Positions 3,596 to 64,000 of a stretch of 64,000 nucleotides of DNA are shown in pieces. Where the stretch lies: the NCBI GenBank assembly GCA_000934665.2, contig KZ538698.1, forward strand, positions 1-64,000, given 5' to 3'. The translations under genes and the position numbers were made by a program. Below the pieces are notes generated by a model. The model did no database searches. It was not told where the DNA came from and was given only the letters and a program-made list of their open reading frames with translations. Source of the stretch: Catajapyx aquilonaris. Its lineage: Eukaryota. Every line of letters starts with the position of its first letter. Within the stretch, counting starts at the first letter, position 1.

Positions 3596-3913
3596 TTTAA
3601 ATGATACCCCGTGATAGGGCCCTAGGCCCTCTTAGGCTTACCACCATCTGGGAGTGGAACCATACTAAGATAGTATTGAATTGATTCCAAGGGTAGGTAG
3701 GAGGGGATGTGCAAAGTGCAAGTGCAATGTCGTTATATGGTCATTTTGTGAACTCCCCCGGGTGGATTAGTCTAGCAGACATTTCCACCCGAAACGAAGC
3801 CAGAGATGGCCCAACTCTGCACGGATAAAGGTGGGAACCCCGGGTGGGGACCGAACCCGGGACCTTAATATCCTTGGGCGCGTGTGTTACCGCAGCACCA
3901 CTTCGTCATCCTG
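3596..3913 (-). mobile_element. tRNA-derived SINE (family A head/core, CACGGGGTA-type tail)
   Basis: Reverse complement of the head/core seen at 13658; TSD ATTTATATAGGTATTT at 3580-3595, with the right copy split by the 3924-5870 element. Confidence 0.8.
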
Positions 3914-13657: not shown

Positions 13658-13983
13658 GGGGAGACGGAGTGGCGCCGCGGTAACGCGCGCGCCCACGAAA
13701 GTTAAGGTCCCGGGTTCAATCCCCACCCGGGTTCCCACCTTCTTTCGTGCAGAGTTGGGCCATCTCTGGCTTCGTTTCGGGTGGCAATTTCCGATAGACT
13801 AAGCCACCCGGGGGAGTTCACAAAATGACGATTAGAGACATTGCACTTGCACTTTGCACATCCCCTCCCACCCACCCTTGGAGTACACTAATTAAGATCT
13901 TCTTAAACTCGCTCCAAAAATCAAATTCCAATGGTGGTAACCCACCCCCCCTAAGGAGTAGCATAACTCCCCCCGTGGGGTAA

Positions 13984-40500: not shown

Positions 40501-42399
40501 ATGGATTCATGTGGTACTCATATCTACCGAGAATTTGTCGGTTGGTAAAGTGTGGATTGGACAGCATTGTCTGTGTAAAGATGGTGGCATCCATTCAGAC
40601 ATTCACCAAGGGGAATGGTGTTATTCAGTTGCGTGCATGGCCTTAGAATACTTAGGTCTGGTCACTCCCTCTTATCACCTGAGGAGGTGTTTTGCGGGAG
40701 GTGCTCACTTGAGAGCGCCTGTCTCTGATGTAAATACATGTGGCGACCCTACCGGACTGTGCTGAACTTCAGTAGAAGGGAAGAGTCTGTCAAAATTAAG
40801 AATCTCATATAAAAAGTTCCAGGTGTCACAGCTCCATTGACTGGCGTGTCAGTGGCACTTCTCTCAGACTAATTATTTTACCATTCTGGAATATTAATTT
40901 TACGCAGCTTGTAGAAAAGTGATTGCAAGCTACAGTAGAGTACATGGCAGATTCATATAGTGCAGTGGCCACTGATATAGTGTGTGCATTCACCAATATA
41001 TTTCGATAGGTTTTGTGTTACATGCCCAAACCCCATCAACAGTTCTCTTCTTGGTGTACAGTGTACACCAGAAAGAGCCCTGCCATTTAGGCACTGCTAC
41101 TATATGACTAACACTCCACCTCTTGGAAAACTTTCTTAACTTATGGGTACCATCAAGTCTTAACTATTGCTCTCAAACAGCACCTCCAAATGGCTGGTGT
41201 AAAAAAATTAATATCACTGTTTTCGTATTCATTTGATCCATCCTTGTACTCTTAGACTGAATTGCACAATCACTGGTTTTGCTCAAAAGCCCGGGGTTAC
41301 CATTGTTATTAAATCACATGATGCCTCCTTTCCCTGCTCGGAAAGTGAGGGGGTGGGTTCACAAAAACAGTCAGTGAGATGGTGGTAGCACGTGCCATCT
41401 GCTGGTGGAAGTCTTCATTTCCATCCACAAAAACTTAAGGGAAAGAAAACGTAAAAACCTGTAGTAACAGGGTTGTTTACACCACCCTTACAGACTGGAC
41501 TTGTGCCCCTGATAAGAAAAAATAGCTGTATCGTGCATATTTTAAGGTAGGAAGAGCAGGCTTAGATCAGCCCATTTCTTTATGGTATGCCATTGGGATC
41601 ATGCACAACATGTGAACTGACAATTTACATTTTCAAAGCTTGTGAAAAGCTGTCATGATGATTAATTATTAGTATCAGCAGTTACTTTTCACTTGTCTTT
41701 TGCTGTGGGTGCAGCTATGTCACTGATAGGAGCACTCATTGTGGGGAGAATTCAGGAGCAGAATCGTGATTCCACATTGAATGGGTTAATTTCAGTGGTA
41801 ACCCCAGGGTTTCAACCTAAACATGCGATGGTTTAACCTGGCCTTTGAGAGGGGAGACGGAGTGGCACCGCGGTAACGCGCGCGCCCACGGAAGTTAAGG
41901 TCCCGGGTTCAATCCCCACCCGGGGTTCCCACCTTCTTTCGTGCAGAGTTGGGCCATCTCTGGCTTCGTTTCGGGTGGCAATTTCCGATAGACTAAGCCA
42001 CCCGGGGGAGTTCACAAAATGACGATTAGAGACATTGCACTTGCACTTTGCACATCCCCTCCCACCCACCCTTGGAGTACACTAATTAAGATTCTTCTTA
42101 AACTCGCTCCAAAAACAAATTCCAATGGTGGTAACCCACCCCCCCTAAGGAGTAGCATAACTCCCCCCGTGGGGTAATGAAAAAAAAAAAAAAAAAAAAA
42201 AACTGGCCTTTGAGAAGCAAGCATAGCCTGACTATCATGACTTGCAAGTGTCCCTGTTGAACAAGATAGCTCTGATACTGCTAAAGTTAATCCCATAGAT
42301 GTCTAAATCTGTATTCTCTCCTTGCCAGGTTTTCAACCTTTTGATCTGGAGGCCTGGTGGGGAAAGCGATTGTTCCAGAACCTCACACAGTCCACTTAA
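31515..42399 (+). CDS. MCRIP1: MAPK-regulated corepressor-interacting protein (FAM195 family), 6 exons, 145 aa
   Basis: Exons 31515-31566, 31791-31872, 38102-38217, 40034-40093, 40180-40236, 42329-42399 give MYALNKAPRKIVAKTRRG...TPQHEELIKYVYGSWNKV...FQPFDLEAWWGKRLFQNLTQST*, typical FAM195 motifs. MCRIP1 versus MCRIP2 cannot be resolved. Confidence 0.92.
32031..32142. mobile_element. Short PIF/Harbinger-type MITE
   Basis: GGCCTGGTTCACATGTGGCCACTTT...AAAGTGGCCATGTGTGCACCTGGCC with TGA/TAA flanks. Confidence 0.55.
32210..32479 (-). mobile_element. Lm1-like tRNA-derived SINE fused to a body segment of the 52684-type SINE
   Basis: Homologous to 37570-37846 and 55309-55620. Minus strand of 32210-32270 matches TCTGACCTGCACC...GGTGTCTGGCAAC of the 52684 SINE. 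Confidence 0.7.
32480..33190. mobile_element. Foldback MITE with piggyBac-type right end
   Basis: ~340-bp inverted arms; right end GAAGGGG|TTAA; left terminus missing at the SINE junction. Confidence 0.75.
33710..34050 (+). mobile_element. 3' fragment of R1-like LINE
   Basis: GLGWPC-coding segment homologous to 62640-62720 (-) and 48150-48240 (-). Confidence 0.55.
34061..34450 (+). mobile_element. Possible Helentron/DINE-1-like element
   Basis: T-run, then hairpin AAGGGC-GATA-GCCCTT, a (CTT/GTT) microsatellite and a CCAAATTTTG motif. Right boundary approximate. Confidence 0.4.
34595..35024. mobile_element. pogo/Tigger-type MITE
   Basis: TA|CAGTTGAATCCGGATATAACA...TTGTATCCGGGTTCAACAG|TA with CTATAACAG subrepeats. 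Confidence 0.75.
35036..35800. mobile_element. Degenerate relative of the 32480 foldback element with an internal ~165-bp direct duplication
   Basis: TTAA|CCCC start; shares CCGGCCAACT...GCTGATTTAATTATGAAAT; 35147-35311 is repeated at 35501-35659. Confidence 0.6.
35875..36668. mobile_element. MITE with ~140-bp TIRs
   Basis: GATCAAACACTTTCCCTTCAG...CTCAAGCAATT is mirrored at 36527-36664. Confidence 0.8.
37570..37846 (-). mobile_element. Lm1-like tRNA-derived SINE
   Basis: ACCGAAGCAG head, degenerate A/B boxes; flanked by ACAAAAAA(A)TAATAAT repeats. Confidence 0.8.
38443..39757. mobile_element. Long foldback element (arms ~475 bp) in MCRIP intron 3
   Basis: 38443-38918 is the diverged reverse complement of 39275-39757. 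Confidence 0.85.
38923..39207. mobile_element. Nested TTAA-flanked (piggyBac-type) MITE
   Basis: TTAA|CCCTTAACTAGTGACC...GGTCACCAGTTTTAAGTG|TTAA with two CCTGGGGTGTT-AAAGACCCCAGG hairpins. Confidence 0.75.
41851..42202 (+). mobile_element. tRNA-derived SINE (family A2) with poly(A) tail
   Basis: Near-identical to 13658; TSD CTGGCCTTTGAGA (41838-41850, 42203-42215). Confidence 0.9.
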
Positions 42400-56963: not shown

Positions 56964-59900
56964 TCAATACACTTCCAGATCATGCGAGAAGAATATGGCT
57001 GCATTGTCCCCACCACAAATGAGGCTGGACCGGAAAACATCCAGAGTGTTGATGGCCAGGTGGGAGTCGGGCAGCGCTGCCTTGGTTGCTACCCGTCCTT
57101 GCGCCAGACTACCACTGAGCCACAGCGATTCCATGGGTGCCTTCAGTGCCTGCGAGTATGTGCCGCCGGCTCTGGACTTGAGTGCATCATTCCACTGCCA
57201 AGTCTCTCCTCCAAATGAGCAAGTGAACAGATGGTTCGGATTCAAGGGATGGAACTTCAGCTCACGGACTGGGGAAAAAGCAGCTCAATTATCCGACAAT
57301 TGCGGAAGAACATGCCAGTACCTTCTGATGTATGTCCCTTAAGCAGGGTGACAGGATACTTTTCCCTCCGGATGTCCCATATTCCGAGTGTCCCTTCCTC
57401 CGTCCCTGTCGCAACAATGTGGGGCTGGGTTGGATGCTGATCAATGCAGGTTATGCCCACCATCTGCAAGGATAATTACTGAATTCACATTTGTGCAGGC
57501 TCATTATAGATGTACCTTGTCTTCGGAGAAGGTAAATATGGCAGCGGGTTTATCACATGAGGTAAGCAGATCGTATACTTTCAGCTGACCTCGCAGGTTG
57601 GCCACCATCAACTCATTGTGCTTTAAGTAGCAGACACTTGTTAGCCAACCGCTCTCGCCTTTATCTGCAAACATTTAATTATACAGTCTAGCTTCAGTAA
57701 TTAATGAACTGTGTTCGTTACCGATGGACCGCATTGGCTCTTGTCTTGCCGGGTTGAGCATAACTATCCTGCCGTCTTCGCCAACAGTTGCGATTTCCTC
57801 CTTAAAATTAGTAACTGCAGTGCATGGCAGCTCTTTGTACCTACAGACAATATGGCACCAGTTAATTCGTATTTTACAATAAATCTTACAGCATGAGTTT
57901 GTTTCTGAAAATCAATTGGTACTTTTTGTGAATCCCCGTCCATCCCCGCAGCAGCTTGAACTTCCAAGCTGCATTGAGGGGGGGTCCAGCCAAATAGATT
58001 TCGTACAGCCGTACGCTCCCGTCAGAGCTAGCGGTCAGAAAGCGATCCGAGTCCATGAACTTGATGTCCATGAAATCGGCCTGTTGAGCCGCCATGTCTA
58101 CACCGACCGGCATGAATCCTTTTCCAGTCAAATCCTCCTGCTGGAACTTCCACAACTTCATCTCATTAACCTGCAAAAACGTGCATTAGAATTTTGCACT
58201 CACATGCTTGTAACACTTAAGTAAGTTCGGGTAAGTGCGACAATGGGGAAAGTCCGGAATTGCTTATAATATATAACATAAGGTGGCAGGAGCTATCAAA
58301 AATCACGAAAACGTTCATGATGACCTTTGTCCACTCTGCTAAAAGTAGCACAACCTTCTCTCTTTCATAACATCAAGAGCTAAGTTATTAGCTAAAATAG
58401 CAGCCAAGTGCAAGGTGGCCTTTAAACTTTGGCAAGTATGTAAGTATCATTTGCAGAATTTCTCACGAGTCATGAATCTCATGCTGCATAACCACTCTGG
58501 AAGTGTACATAAGAGGTTAAGGTGTGCTGTCACGCTGTTATTGTTCCATTTTGGTGGTATAATCATGCTGGTTTTAAACGGGGCCGCACTTGCCCCTAAC
58601 AAGTCATGGTCAGGGGCAAGTGCGCACCCAATTAATATGATGGATCGAATTGCAATATTGGGGGAATAAAACTAGCGGGCACCAAAAGAGGAGACAAGAC
58701 ATATTTTTGTGGGTCACCAGTGGATATTTTGCAAATGGCAACTGGCTAATTTCGAACACTGGTGTGAAAACACTTCCACAGAATGCATTTAAATCAGATA
58801 ATGCCAGTACCATTAGCCAACCTGTTGCAGAGCAGTGAATAAAAGTGTGTCATGTAAGAACTCATCAGAATTTTTTAAAATTCAGAATATACAGACTGAC
58901 AGAGGAAGTTTGTGTCTTTGTGGCACTAGTCCTATGCAACCAGAGCAATGTTTATTACTGTGAGAGAATTCCACAGTTGCACTTACCCCATATCGCGGGG
59001 CACGTGCGGCACTGTGCACCACGTGCATATTTTAATTATTTTTCGGAGCACCCACATAGATGAATGTTATGCAATACGCCATTTTGAAAGGCAATAATAA
59101 GGTAAGGTACATCCCAGGTATCAAACCCATATGTGCACTGCAACTTTTTCTATTTTGAGCCCATATTTGGCCCATATTGGACTCATATTAATTAATATTA
59201 TGGCCCCCCATATGGGTCCAATATAGAGAAAAGTTGCAGTGCCCATATTGGCTACCCATATTGGACCCATATTAATATGGGCTGGCATTGTGGGCTGCCC
59301 AGATGGGGCCCATGTAGGGGCTGCCTCGTCAGAATCACGGGAAGTGACTTACTATTAGCTGCAACCTCGTTGCAGTCTTACACTCTGACAGGCTGTTGCG
59401 ATGGTTGGTTGTTTGGTTGCCAGAGAAGTCTAGAAGTGCCTGGCTTGTATGGCTCTTTTTGTTGAGCCTTTGCAGAAAAAGCCGCCTTTCCATACTGAGA
59501 GTTGTCCTGCTTGCACCAAAAACATTGCCATCGAACTATTCTAGCAAATTTATGTCACAATGAAGTAGGTCGGGGGTAAATGAGCCGTATGCAGTTGAGT
59601 CTCCTGCCACCTTTGTGCACATGTAATGACCAAAATTAATTCGCATTGTTGTGGGATAAATCGGAGAAGACTTGCAACAATAATCCGATGGCAGCGCCAT
59701 ATGGACGTGGGTTGAATATGGGCTATTTGGCCCCACATACCCCAGAGGCTGAATGTGGGCACAATATGGGCTATATGCCCCCACATAGCTCACATAGTGC
59801 CCATATGGGTTTAATATGGGCTATATGGAGCCCATATATGCCCACATAGGCCCCCATATAGCTTGCTACCTGGGATATTGTCCATCACTTATTGCTAAAT

Positions 59901-60166
59901 ACTGAGGAAGTAGCATGCCTTTAAACCGCACCTAATCAAAATCCGGCCGCACTTACCCCGACTTACCCTGTTTATTCCCCCCCCCCCCACGCCCCTATTT
60001 TTAACTGCACTTATTTTATTCTGCCCAGTTTAAGAACCTTGCTCCCCCATGATCCTGTCAGGAAGACTTGTGTTGACTGTGATCCAAGGAACCAATCTTC
60101 AGAGGCGGGTCTCCATCTGATTTTGCTCACTTTGTGAGGCGTGAACTTCGCAAAAGAACGCTCCAT
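56964..60166 (-). CDS. NUP43: Nucleoporin Nup43 (WD40), 6 exons, 363 aa
   Basis: Exons 60166-60038, 58170-57923, 57840-57722, 57664-57516, 57463-57322, 57268-56964 join in frame (1092 nt). Motifs KVSKIRWRP, FLTGSW, IATVGEDGRI, HPTQPHIVATG, FHPLNPNHLFTCS, INTLDV. Confidence 0.95.
59113..59874. mobile_element. CACTA/EnSpm-type non-autonomous element in NUP43 intron 1
   Basis: AT|CCCAGGTA...TACCTGGG|AT (2-bp TSD) with dense subterminal CCCATAT/ATATGGG repeats. Confidence 0.75.
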
Positions 60167-60277
60167 TTCCGACGCGACCTCAGTCAGACGGGGCTCAACC
60201 AGGCTCAACTGTCACTAACGGTCACAGCCATGGAGGTAGTAAAATAGTGGCCATTTTATAGTCGCTCCAACCGGTGT

Positions 60278-60373
60278 CCAGGATTGGTCAAAATAACGCG
60301 GGTCACGATTGGTCAAAACAACGCCGGCGTTGTTTTGACCAATCGTGACCCGCGTTATTTTGACCAATCCTGG
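60278..60373. repeat. 96-bp perfect spacerless palindrome in the NUP43 promoter region
   Basis: Centre GCC|GGC at 60325/60326; each arm has two GATTGGTCAAAAYAACGC units. Confidence 0.95.
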
Positions 60374-60490
60374 CGGCCGGTCACTAGCGTCCCCACCCCC
60401 ATTCCCCAACTGAACAGCCTGGGGGTGTGGGTGGGTGAGGTTCCGCAGGATGGAACAGCCGCTTACACGTCCGCGCTTTTGTGGGTAGGG

Positions 60491-60497
60491 TATAAAA
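60491..60497 (+). promoter_or_regulatory. TATA box ahead of the histone H3 fragment
   Basis: TATAAAA followed by CATTC at 60515-60519. Confidence 0.45.
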
Positions 60498-60553
60498 CGG
60501 CCAATTTTCCCGCCCATTCGACCAGTCTTGATCAGGTGCTAGCTGAATCGCGT

Positions 60554-60736
60554 TTGTTTGAGGACACCAACATCTGCGCCATCCACGCCAAGAGGGTCAC
60601 CATTATGCCCACCAGCTTGCCCGCCGCATCCGTGGAGAACACGCTTAAAATCTACAGCCCCTGTTAACCTCATCCGACCTCATCACTAAAAAAACAGCCC
60701 TTTTCAGGGGTACCACACCTATCACGTAGAGAGAAG
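60554..60736 (+). pseudogene. H3: Histone H3 3' fragment with stem-loop and purine-rich downstream element
   Basis: LFEDTNICAIHAKRVTIMP[7-nt deletion]QLARRIRGEHA*; AGCCCT-TTTC-AGGGGT-ACCA at 60696-60715; AGAGAGAAG at 60728. Confidence 0.9.
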
Positions 60737-60803
60737 TTATGCAATTCTGAGCATGTAGTTATTAAGGTAGCACCATTGTCGACTGGCTTGTTTGTACCGG
60801 AAG

Positions 60804-61040
60804 GGAAACGCTGCTCTCGACAAGGTGACCTGGATCATACCCCGCCTATTTGAGGACGCCAGCCTGTGGGCCATCCACACCAAATGGGTCACCATCATGG
60901 CCAAGAACATCCAGCTCGCCTGCCGCATCCGTGGAGAGCAACCCTATTTCCACCTGCCCACATTTGATAACAGCCCTGTTCAGGGCTACCACACCTGTCA
61001 CGTTGAGATATGCAGTTAGTAATTAAGGTAGCATCATTTC
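60804..61040 (+). pseudogene. Chimeric histone H2A/H3 fragment with histone stem-loop
   Basis: [14 protein letters not shown] (H2A GNAARDNKKTRIIPR) in frame with [31 protein letters not shown] (H3); AGCCCT-GTTC-AGGGCT-ACCA at 60972-60991. Confidence 0.8.
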
Positions 61041-61239
61041 GCAAGGAAATGGTTGCGCTAGTAAAGACATGACTCCGCTTGACCCCTAACCCCCAGTATC
61101 TAGTAGTCCTCATACAGCAATGATAATGGAGATGGGAAAGGAAAGGCAGGTGTTGGTGTATGTGTTAATTGGAACTGGGAGGTGTGAAGCCCAACATCCA
61201 TGCCACGCTGCTGCCCAAGAAGATGGGGTAGGTGTTACT

Positions 61240-61241
<2 letters not shown>

Positions 61242-61324
<83 letters not shown>

Positions 61325-61648
61325 TCCGGGGTAGTGCTGACCTCATCAGAGGTACGTAGCATGGACCTTAATTTATTATGTCAAGTACATTGGAGCCTTT
61401 ATACGTAACGCCCGGGCCCACGGGCAGGATGACAGGAGGGGATGTGCAAGGTGCAGTGGATCTGACGCTGTGGCCATTTTTAGTGAACTTCCCCGGGTGG
61501 TTTAGTCTGTGGAAGTACCACCCGAGACGAAGCCAGAGGTGACCCTGAACTCCGCACGAGATGAAGGGGGTGTCCCCGGGTTGGGATCGAACCCGGGACC
61601 TAAACATCCGTGGGCGCGTACGTTACCGTAGCACCACTTCGCCTCCCC
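61242..61648 (-). mobile_element. tRNA-derived SINE (family A) with (TTA)n tail
   Basis: Reverse complement of the 2161 copy; 16-bp TSD GGGTAGGTGTTACTTA (61226-61241, 61649-61664). Confidence 0.9.
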
Positions 61649-62309
61649 GGGTAGGTGTTACTTAACTACCAACAGGAGGAAAAATAGTAATGTTTGATAG
61701 CATATTTGCAAAAACCCACAGACCGGTTCTTATTTCAATAAGACTGGTGTAGGCCTAATTGTGTATCTTCTGCACATATCTTAGAAGTGACATGCTACTG
61801 CCACTTGCACTTAGCAGTTTGCATATGTATAGTACAGTGCAATTATTAAATGAGGTTTTTGTAGAGTACGACAATACCTTCTAGCATATATGGTCAGTGG
61901 TAACCAGTCATATTTTGACGGTGATATTATTATATGTTTGGTACTTTGATTCAGTTTGTGATTTGAAGCTCTTATTCTAGGCCACATCCACTTTCAATTT
62001 AGAGGCAAGTAAAAGCAATGTTATTATTATTATGTATCGTACATAGACTATTACTAGCAGGGGACCCGTTCTTCATACAAGACAATGCCAATGCTCTATC
62101 CATCATCTCTGGAGATCTATCCCCTTACACCATAGGATACACAGTAGGTACAGAATGGCCATGGAATAGATGATGTGGTGAAAATTTACGTTTTCAATCA
62201 GTAAATAGCAGCTGAGGCAGCTAAACCCACTCAAGGTAGATAAAAAATTAATATATTTTCATTGCTGGAAATAAAGATCAAATTGATAGGTATTTACATA
62301 CATAACATC

Positions 62310-64000
62310 ACGACATTAATCCCATGATGGGGTAGCCAGGATGACCAAGTACATTCGCAAGCATAAAGATGTGGATGGTAGAGCAGAGATCTTCCTCGCC
62401 CCATGGGCTCTTTGCATGACGTCAGCCCTTCACCCACAGCCCCAGGGTAGGCCTACTAGTCTAGGACATGCTAAGAATACTTTAATAGCGACAATGGTTA
62501 CCCAGCCCATGAGGGCTGCACCATCTTCATCATCCACAGTCCCCTATTTATTAACAAACAATAATTACAATCCAACATAGCAAATGGCAAACCCAAACCC
62601 CCACAGGCGTTTACCAGACGACTCAAATGTCTGTCCACGATAAGGCAGAAAGTATTCAAGTCCTCCCACAGTTTAGCCGTCCGAACGCCCTTGGAACATG
62701 GCCACCCCAGTCCCCTGGACACAGCAGCACACAGAAGAGAACTATGGGCCCATAGAACCTCAGGAAGGAGACGTGCTCCGCATCCTGTTGTCCAGTTCCA
62801 CAGGGACAGGCAGTGTCCCCCTTCAGTCCAAATCGATGCAAATAAGCCAGGAAAGGGCCATAACCAGACACTATGTGTGCTAAGTGTCCAGGAACATGTC
62901 TATCTTCGGTCACCAACGAGAAGAACCGGTGGTACCAGCTGCCACGAGCCCTGCTTCAGCCATTTTGCCAGGACTTCTCTGCTCTTCCCAAGGATTGATG
63001 TCTCAGCACAGCCTTTGTCACTGGCAAAAATCTCCACCCCACCGTCAGGGAAGCTGTCTGCTTCGCTTCTTGGTCCGCTAGCTCGTTCCCAGGAGTTCCA
63101 TTATGTGCCTTAACCCAGCACAGCTGCACCTCAGCCACTATACCATGAAGAGTCTGCATGGCCGCTCCACTGCCAGCGATAGTGACCTGGGATCAGCGAT
63201 GGTTTGTAGAGCCGACATTGAGTTGGACACTACCCAGGCCACCTGTCCATGTCACCAGGAAGGCTCATGTCCACCAGAACCTCTAGCGCCCTTCCCACCA
63301 TTTTCATCAGCTCCACCTCATTGATCCTCACTGTGTTGACGAATGGCATCAGCTCGATGAACTGCCTGTTCCCCTCCCCTGCCATGCACAGCAATGCGCC
63401 ACCCGCACTGCAGCCTCTGGTCACTGAATCGTCCGTGAAGGCGATAAGATCTAGGCCTACACCTCGCAGAACATATGTCCATGTTAGTATGTCCAGGCGA
63501 CGCCACAGCCAAGGGGGAATCAGATGTCGTAACGTGTTGTTTTTGGCACCATCAGTCCAGAAATCACCTGAGGGATTCTAGCACAGCGTTGCTCCACCAG
63601 TTTGTCAACTCTAGGCACCAGCAGGGGTACCAACTGAAAAGTTGTACCAAATTTTGACGCTGATTGACTTGACATGTCAAGGGCATGAAATCGAAATTCC
63701 CTTCCTTTAGTAGGTTGACATATTATTCTCCATAATTGACCTCCCATTGTTTGACCTGTGATCTGCAGACAGAGTTCCTAGCTTGAATTGATTCCATGCC
63801 TTCTCAGCCCGCCCATGACAGATTTTCCCTACACCTGCCAGACGTGACCTTCTGACCCTTGCGGAGAGGCTGTGCACATTTCACGAGGGTTCAAGAAATA
63901 GTTGGTGACCCACGTCAGGTCAGGTCCAACCCCACCCGTTTTGCCATATCATATAGCATGTAAAGAGTTCCTAGCTTGAATTGATTCCATGCCTTCTCAG
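62310..64000 (-). mobile_element. R1-like LINE relic (RNase H, CCHC finger, 3' UTR), degraded, runs off window
   Basis: WVKAHNGTPGNELADQEAK and HIVSGYGPFLAYLHRFGL..TACPCG..QDAEHV motifs in broken frames. Confidence 0.8.

Follow-up and report, generated by a model that had tools for sequence, protein, structure and literature searches.

A reading frame in the 64-kb window (the whole stretch of DNA analysed here, 64,000 nucleotides) runs from H2A-like codons straight into the 3' end of an H3 gene, and a second H3 fragment nearby starts at the same codon. The question raised by this locus is whether such an arrangement is a gene, a mobile cassette carrying histone 3' ends, or the debris of histone genes, and how two H3 pieces came to share one start point. 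The evidence presented below indicates that the locus is very likely debris of histone pseudogenes, non-functional and of the orphon type. Its history is probably that of a single H2A/H3 join, followed by a local tandem duplication and then by neutral decay. Ordinary genomic decay, yielding neither a gene nor a jumping element, is thus the most likely reading.

The window is animal DNA with 41% G+C, a CpG observed/expected ratio of 0.64 and 236 N. Histone sequences were sought over its whole length, on both strands, using nhmmer with DNA profiles built from the genes of other organisms (18 distinct H2A, 3 H3, 3 H4 and 20 H2B coding sequences). These genes were located by means of a degenerate pattern for the H2A motif IIPRHLQLA, which recognized 68 loci in prokaryote genome records, most of them MAG contigs with eukaryote histone repeats; one bacterial ORF with a chance match to the motif and ORFs without the usual start were left out of the profiles. 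The DNA profiles detect no intact H2A, H2B, H3 or H4 gene in the 64-kb window, and H4 and H2B are absent altogether, with best E-values over the whole window of 0.82 and 0.2, respectively. The histone pieces that are present all lie on the plus strand and in gene order, with profile matches at 60552–60648 and 60844–60939 for H3, and at 60803–60853 and 61175–61232 for H2A. Their coordinates, together with those of the neighbouring features, are given in Table 1.

Table 1. Features of the histone locus and its surroundings, in window coordinates.
Feature	Position	Strand	Description
Palindrome	60270–60381		112 nt, 56-nt arms, 95% complementary, without spacer; four CCAAT-box-like GACCAATC/GATTGGTC
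TATAAAA	60491–60497	+	~25 nt before a CCATTC initiator-like motif; candidate promoter; read directly
Pre-junction segment, unit A	60518–60553	+	Ends in Arg codon CGT; candidate heavily deleted spacer and H2A remnant
H3 fragment, copy A	60554–60648	+	Codons L103 to stop; TAA at 60646–60648; nhmmer E 9.9e-19; Pfam PF00125 26.3 bits
Stem-loop, copy A	60696–60711	+	AGCCCU UUUC AGGGGU, G.G mismatch at second pair; then ACCACACC; RF00032 17.8 bits
3' flank, copy A	60712–60779	+	Reaches TTAAGGTAGCACCATT; ~65 nt beyond expected cleavage site
Purine-rich block GTAGAGAGAAG	60726–60736	+	HDE-like, judged by eye; 3' of copy A stem-loop
Spacer before H2A piece	60780–60802	+	21/36 ungapped matches to H2A consensus; 15/1000 shuffles reach this
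H2A fragment	60803–60845	+	Codons ~67–81, one codon (3 nt) deleted; nhmmer 60803–60853, E 0.0027
H3 fragment, copy B	60846–60941	+	Codons L103 to ~134; nhmmer E 3.8e-20; PDB H3 chains E 7e-9
Stem-loop, copy B	60972–60987	+	AGCCCU GUUC AGGGCU, six pairs; then ACCACACC; RF00032 18.0 bits
3' flank, copy B	60988–61040	+	Reaches TTAAGGTAGCATCATT; 15 nt of purine-rich block missing
Intervening segment	61041–61174	+	134 nt between copy B and H2A C-terminus; contig depth 20–51, at or near single-contig level
H2A C-terminus	61175–61231	+	Codons ~104 to end (GGVKPNIHATLLPKKMG and stop, 61178–61231); stop TAG 61229–61231; nhmmer E 2e-8
SINE	61242–61648	-	~410 nt; (TAA)n tail 61242–61325 as read on the plus strand; just past the H2A stop

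The H3 profile has only two significant places, the third-ranked match in the whole window having an E-value of 0.041, and the assignment is concordant with Pfam PF00125 (33.9 and 26.3 bits) and with PDB H3 chains. The two 3'-end fragments are referred to as copy A and copy B; with their 3' flanks, they extend over 60554–60779 and 60846–61040 on the plus strand. Both alignments open at profile position 308, so that both pieces start at the identical nucleotide of the H3 gene, at codon L103 plus at most 2 nt of G102. The earlier observation that H3 begins at the same codon in both fragments therefore holds down to the nucleotide. Codons 1–102 are absent from both copies, neither of which has a complete ORF with a start codon. 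A 7-nt deletion after 60611 breaks the frame of copy A, in which the TAA is kept. Copy B carries 10 replacement changes in 34 codons, including CGG>TGG and CGC>TGC, and has lost its stop. A third copy considered at ~59040–59115 was rejected, since its score of 13.5 is surpassed by random tiles of the window (up to 17.5).

The 14-residue H2A peptide ahead of copy B, taken alone, has no match by phmmer against the PDB, by Pfam, or by BLASTP against an H2A ORF. The H2A identity of 60804–60845 is established at the DNA level, by comparison with the H2A genes of other organisms: besides the nhmmer match, the ~42 nt ahead of copy B reach a best local score of 22 against these genes, a value attained by none of 400 shuffles (10.2 ± 1.3). 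H2A DNA at 60803–60845 abuts H3 DNA from 60846 onward, and the in-frame H2A-H3 chimera predicted at 60804–61040 is real. It was also correctly noted that no ATG precedes the fusion; the open frame, 60771–61019, contains none ahead of the H2A-H3 join.

An H2A C-terminus at 61175–61231, overlooked in the original prediction, changes the context of this chimera. It is the best tblastn H2A match in the whole window, scores 25 bits with Pfam PF16211 (cut-off 20, E 1.6e-5) and matches PDB H2A chains. The H2A profile recognizes this piece and the fragment ahead of copy B only, the next match having an E-value of 55. The two pieces are separated by 329 nt on the same strand, with gene order kept; the intervening sequence consists of H3 copy B (195 nt) and a further 134 nt, and H2A codons 82–103 are missing. 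Because the H2A C-terminus and its stop follow 329 nt downstream on the same strand, H3 copy B, as judged from the sequence, is located inside an H2A pseudogene and is not a free-standing fusion. No complete H2A ORF is present, codons 1 to ~66 and 82–103 being undetectable.

The sequences adjoining the two H2A pieces were also compared with H2A. The stretch 61041–61177 was rejected as a remnant of codons 82–103, as 353 and 484 of 1000 shuffles do equally well, and the end of the H3 cassette, GGTAGCACCATT, resembles codons 99–102 at chance level only (218 of 400 shuffles). A read-through translation of 61040–61228, with X at stops, retrieved no candidates from a large protein index. The spacer before the H2A fragment may correspond to H2A codons 29–38, fused to codon 67 across a common GGAAAC; nhmmer has no H2A match over 60780–60802.

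The copy number of the H2A/H3 junction was assessed with read contigs placed on 59900–62100 at a likeness of at least 80%. Four runs of one sample cover the stretch, and the contigs of three of them were used, together with a fifth run from another sample with the same species label; the latter contains almost none of the stretch, is without cover of 60196–61231 and provides no evidence either way. These contigs also bear on the idea that the chimera is an assembly artefact, in which reads of different histone genes were merged. Histone genes are multi-copy, and the contigs break at 60574–60577 and inside the palindrome, which speaks for such an error. Against it, an independent contig build gives a 692-nt contig that spans 60574–61230 with 0 differences in each of the three runs, including the copy B junction and the sequence up to the H2A C-terminus, so that the reference assembly is not alone in having the junction; the three runs represent one sample, which is possibly the assembly's own source. 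We regard an artefact as hardly credible.

The bin that contains the H2A/H3 junction (60788–60861) has a depth of 20, 21.3 and 24.1 in the three runs, exactly that of the one contig spanning it. Depth is 425–812 over the coding bins of copy A, 128–288 over its 3' flank (60640–60787) and 24–293 over copy B, compared to a baseline of ~20, and a value of 10^5 is found for the SINE, the positive control; such summed depths do not translate into copy numbers, copies of less than 80% likeness or rare ones escape, and all three runs are from one sample. The raised depth over the H3 coding part and flank implies that other DNA in the animal resembles them, while in these contigs the junction is found nowhere else. 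An excess of this kind is expected of the ordinary multi-copy H3 genes of the host. Among the contigs listed, none bridges the left junction of copy A with 31 nt on each side.

These results are at odds with the suggestion that the H3 pieces belong to a mobile cassette. According to this explanation, two adjacent sites each received, in independent events, a discrete H3 3'-end cassette with fixed ends (L103 to CCATT), which was either mobile or repeatedly captured from histone-repeat DNA outside the chromosomes; one insertion, copy A, would follow a stretch resembling a promoter, and the other, copy B, would be inside H2A. It would account for an H3 start that is identical in both copies while the left flanks differ, both by eye and in the H2A test. 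Other contigs, with a likeness of at least 80%, cover the cassette including its 3' flank without its borders, and the reintegration of circles from tandem repeats is proposed as a source of orphons in the accessible part of PMC3225859. The excess depth is equally well explained by the multi-copy H3 genes of the host, however, and the junction bins are single-copy. No terminal repeats, target-site duplication or transposition gene surround copy A or copy B, and no further copy of the cassette or the junction occurs elsewhere in the window. The left flanks are weakly alike in collinear order, as described below, which favours one event over two. The original prediction had named dispersed copies as the check on mobility; at a likeness of at least 80%, in three runs of one sample, the junction is single-copy, and the cassette explanation is unlikely.

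If the join arose only once, H2A sequence is expected ahead of copy A as well. The upstream segment of copy A alone has no H2A signal, 382 of 400 shuffles doing equally well. Global alignment of 60512–60553 (42 nt, comprising the pre-junction segment and 6 nt that include the first CCATT) with 60772–60845 (74 nt), allowing one long deletion, gives p-values of 0.006–0.036 with four gap settings; the score is reached by 18–71 of 3000 shuffles and by 48–145 of ~3980 random 42-mers from the window. With the two upstream regions aligned from the junction as anchor, p is 0.014 (42 of 3000 shuffles and 68 of 4972 random 45-mers), and a plain local comparison of the upstream segments gives p-values between 0.03 and 0.33. 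Since these tests were chosen after inspection of the data, we grade the upstream homology as moderately supported; for the H3 part, the homology of copies A and B is clear (E 1.7e-17). Weakly but collinearly, the 42 nt upstream of copy A thus appear to resemble the spacer and H2A fragment that precede copy B. Aligned in this way, both copies would have one and the same H2A R81 codon as the Arg codon in front of LFED.

The borders of the units point in the same direction. CCATT occurs at 60513–60517 and 60775–60779, and TCATT at 61036–61040. The units so delimited measure 262 and 261 nt, an arrangement that slippage or unequal exchange between short repeats would be expected to leave. A tandem repeat was not called by TRF, and the sequence after copy B has no significant likeness to the start of the unit (p ~0.15), leaving a third unit start unsupported. 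The shared breakpoint, which had been described as unexplained, finds its simplest explanation in the common descent of the two copies, given the collinear likeness upstream.

Copies A and B are identical at 76 of 95 nt in the coding part (~80%) and at 81 of 98 aligned positions in the 3' part (~83%). The near-equal divergence of coding and non-coding sequence fits neutral drift after the duplication of an already dead piece. The differences between the copies fall 8, 1 and 10 times on codon positions 1, 2 and 3, a distribution less even than purely neutral decay would give. Replacement changes number 2 in copy A and 10 in copy B; this difference, which is not significant by a rough binomial estimate, leans against an equal age of the two. 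The 3' UTRs do differ between the copies, as was noted earlier, and they do so by indels. The downstream motifs that they were said to have in common are contained in two blocks, one of 40 nt (90% identity) and one of 27 nt (85%), with the homology extending ~50–65 nt beyond the stem-loop.

The last of these features is relevant to a retroposed origin, in which reverse transcriptase would have started at the 3' end of an H3 transcript, changed template at codon 103 to codon 81 of an H2A transcript and given rise to an integrated chimeric retropseudogene. The two parts share one orientation and their join is clean and in frame, features also of the template-switch chimeras reported in the accessible part of 10.1101/2025.02.02.635956, and both LINE and SINE activity are evident in the window. 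A mature histone mRNA would end before the point to which both copies extend, ~50–65 nt past the stem-loop. In addition, the unit has neither an A-rich or microsatellite tail nor a surrounding target duplication, and retroposition, which we consider highly improbable, does not explain the H2A C-terminus that follows downstream on this strand.

Both stem-loops are histone-type in shape. The one after the chimera is fully paired, as had been predicted, with six pairs and a GUUC loop whose first base is non-consensus; at 18.0 bits it remains below the gathering score. Both hairpins reach ~18 bits against a gathering score of 34 for Rfam Histone3 (RF00032), and no histone stem-loop at gathering level was found by Rfam anywhere in the window. 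A histone stem-loop downstream of the H2A stop was not found either. The hairpin at 61721–61747, which would be ~70 nt past the H2A stop with the SINE removed, has a UUCA loop that is vaguely histone-like; it was rejected as a histone stem-loop, having a bulged stem of 11 pairs (ACCGGUUCUUAU UUCA AUAAGACUGGU), no Rfam match and a z-score of -1.35.

A metagenome scan for the stem-loop returned one contig, whose likeness to the window is limited to 28 nt. This contig (L001, 3400–3903, minus strand) has an identical stem-loop, AGCCCTTTTCAGGGCTACCACACC, with a CAAAGAGAA block downstream. Before the stem-loop, a TATA-like box is followed by ~300 nt with a ~50-nt direct repeat and without a histone ORF. 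The stretch adjoins retroelement-like ORFs.

Upstream of the histone debris, the palindrome at 60270–60381 contains Rfam matches below gathering scores, and the TATAAAA region is not multi-copy in the read contigs (depth 17–47, bins 60418–60565). A TATA-like box on the minus strand at ~60252–60258 and the plus-strand TATAAAA give this region a layout that resembles a divergent histone promoter. No histone remnant was found on the minus side of the palindrome.

The promoter-like elements and the stem-loops could be taken together as a unit in use, in which the TATA box at 60491 and the initiator would drive a putative short non-coding RNA with histone-type 3' processing at the stem-loop of copy A or B, for example an SLBP-binding RNA. 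The distance of ~25 nt between TATA and CCATTC, the presence of two stem-loops and the purine-rich block after that of copy A are all compatible with such a transcript. The condition of the stem-loops is not: copy A has a mismatch at the second pair, in copy B the first base of the loop departs from the consensus and the purine block is deleted, and both score about half the Rfam threshold. Decay of the unit looks neutral, and its use is very improbable. A broader proposal, which we hold to be quite improbable, is that the H3 3'-end module (L103, stem-loop, downstream element and CCATT) might be a discrete unit that the lineage copies around, within a more general habit in which RNA-end signals of histone type are carried to non-histone DNA; a short RNA with a stem-loop at its end would in that case be made from the TATA unit at 60491.

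We return to the single join and local duplication, for which we infer the following order of events. A solitary H2A gene copy would have been broken, and an H3 3' fragment (L103, stop, 3' UTR, stem-loop and ~65 nt of flank) would have been inserted together with 134 nt of filler by illegitimate end joining. The H2A R81 codon would thereby have been made to abut H3 L103, with a possible overlap of at most 1–2 nt (GC), as judged on the profiles of other organisms, and H2A codons 82–103 would have been replaced by the H3 piece and the 134 nt. Deletions upstream of the join may have come next. The unit of ~262 nt, comprising spacer, H2A piece and H3 3' end, would then have been duplicated in tandem to give A and B, probably through slippage or unequal exchange at CCATT. 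Such a tandem duplication has the consequence that both H3 pieces start at one base after an Arg codon. Neutral decay would have followed, with CpG transitions (CGG>TGG and CGC>TGC), the 7-nt deletion, loss of a stop and the hairpin defects, and the H2A piece preceding copy A was presumably lost for the most part through deletions. Insertion of the SINE after the H2A stop appears to be the last step.

The SINE is flanked by a perfect 16-bp target duplication, GGGTAGGTGTTACTTA, at 61226–61241 and 61649–61664, the only one at the locus. Four other copies in the window, at 2161–2572 (94% identical), 3699–3905, 13658–13868 and 41851–42062, have identities of 79–94%. The family is very abundant, with a read-contig depth ~10^4 times the single-copy level. 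Other repeats are found on both sides of the histone debris. The ~800 nt at 59050–59860 are dense in copies, both direct and inverted, of a motif resembling CCCATATGGGC and may be internal repeats of some element. At 60034–60166, a second contig of 1173–1318 nt, present in both samples, matches at ~85% with several small deletions; this stretch is probably a piece of a low-copy repeat, to the left of the promoter-like region. An open frame on the minus strand at 62900–63200 contains an RNase H-like motif, CWVKAHNGTPGNELADQEAKQ, and may be part of a decayed non-LTR retrotransposon.

The combination of H2A and H3 was also sought in other sequence sets. The IIPR/LFED join is absent from the best 150 of 182 H3-like protein representatives. 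In viral contigs, a scan with a single protein and a search with the degenerate H2A pattern returned nothing, and a scan with an H3 alignment returned 52 loci, none with H2A beside H3. PF16211 had no match in three of the records with these loci, nor in the controls.

The locus is thus histone-derived and non-coding, with no intact histone gene in 64 kb. The original suggestion that a histone cluster gave rise to these pieces by deletion is correct in kind, as the DNA is decayed, truncated H2A and H3 sequence with intact genes absent from the 64 kb; its mobile alternative has found no support, the junction being single-copy in the read contigs. The locus provides a small, clean case of multi-copy histone genes shedding fragments, which are subject to illegitimate repair joins, local duplication and decay. 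It is a warning to annotators that an open H2A-H3 frame may be a pseudogene mosaic. Its wider relevance is only that of a negative control for claims of mobility on histone stem-loop cassettes in this genome.

Histone orphons and pseudogenes were reportedly described by Childs et al. in 1981, and an 'orphon' histone cluster of Chironomus is said to have been described by Hankeln and Schmidt in 1993. We adopt the definition of orphons given in the accessible part of PMC3225859. Like the orphons described there, the pieces at this locus derive from tandem histone genes, are located away from an intact histone gene and have lost their coding capacity. Unlike an orphon that is a whole solitary gene, the locus is a mosaic, with two H3 3' ends in a fragmented H2A copy and a local duplication. 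A literature search, which was not exhaustive, found no description of this H2A/H3 arrangement.

The 3' ends resemble those of replication-dependent histone mRNAs in the six-pair stem, the four-base loop and the ACCA after the stem, and copy A has a purine-rich block ~15 nt downstream, like the histone downstream element. They deviate from the RF00032 consensus in having A-U in place of G-C as the first pair and a defect in each copy, with scores of 18 versus 34 bits. As in the template-switch chimeric retrocopies of U6/LINE-1 type covered by the accessible part of 10.1101/2025.02.02.635956, two unrelated gene pieces are arranged head to tail in one orientation; in contrast to these retrocopies, the locus has no tail or target duplication, its sequence continues past the mRNA end, and the host gene resumes downstream. 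An H3 sequence outside its normal gene context is likewise a feature of the transposon-amplified histone H3 of fungi, as presented in the accessible part of PMC6710886. In the fungal case a transposon carries and multiplies H3, whereas here neither transposon ends nor further copies of the junction came to light.

H2A and H3 are joined in seven proteins among the best 150 of the 182 H3-like representatives, and in five of these the H3 part begins with RLVREIAQ. The predicted fusion proteins P0059, P0093, P0127, P0128 and P0138, from public gene sets, resemble the present chimera in having H2A followed by H3 in one frame; they differ in entering H3 at RLVREIAQ (~residue 70) rather than at L103, and their sequences are intact. 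Their intact state makes it probable that they arose as gene models running from one histone gene into its neighbour via a cryptic acceptor. The present locus belongs to the long-known class of histone orphons and pseudogenes, of which the H2A/H3 mosaic and the micro-duplication are particulars and not a new kind.
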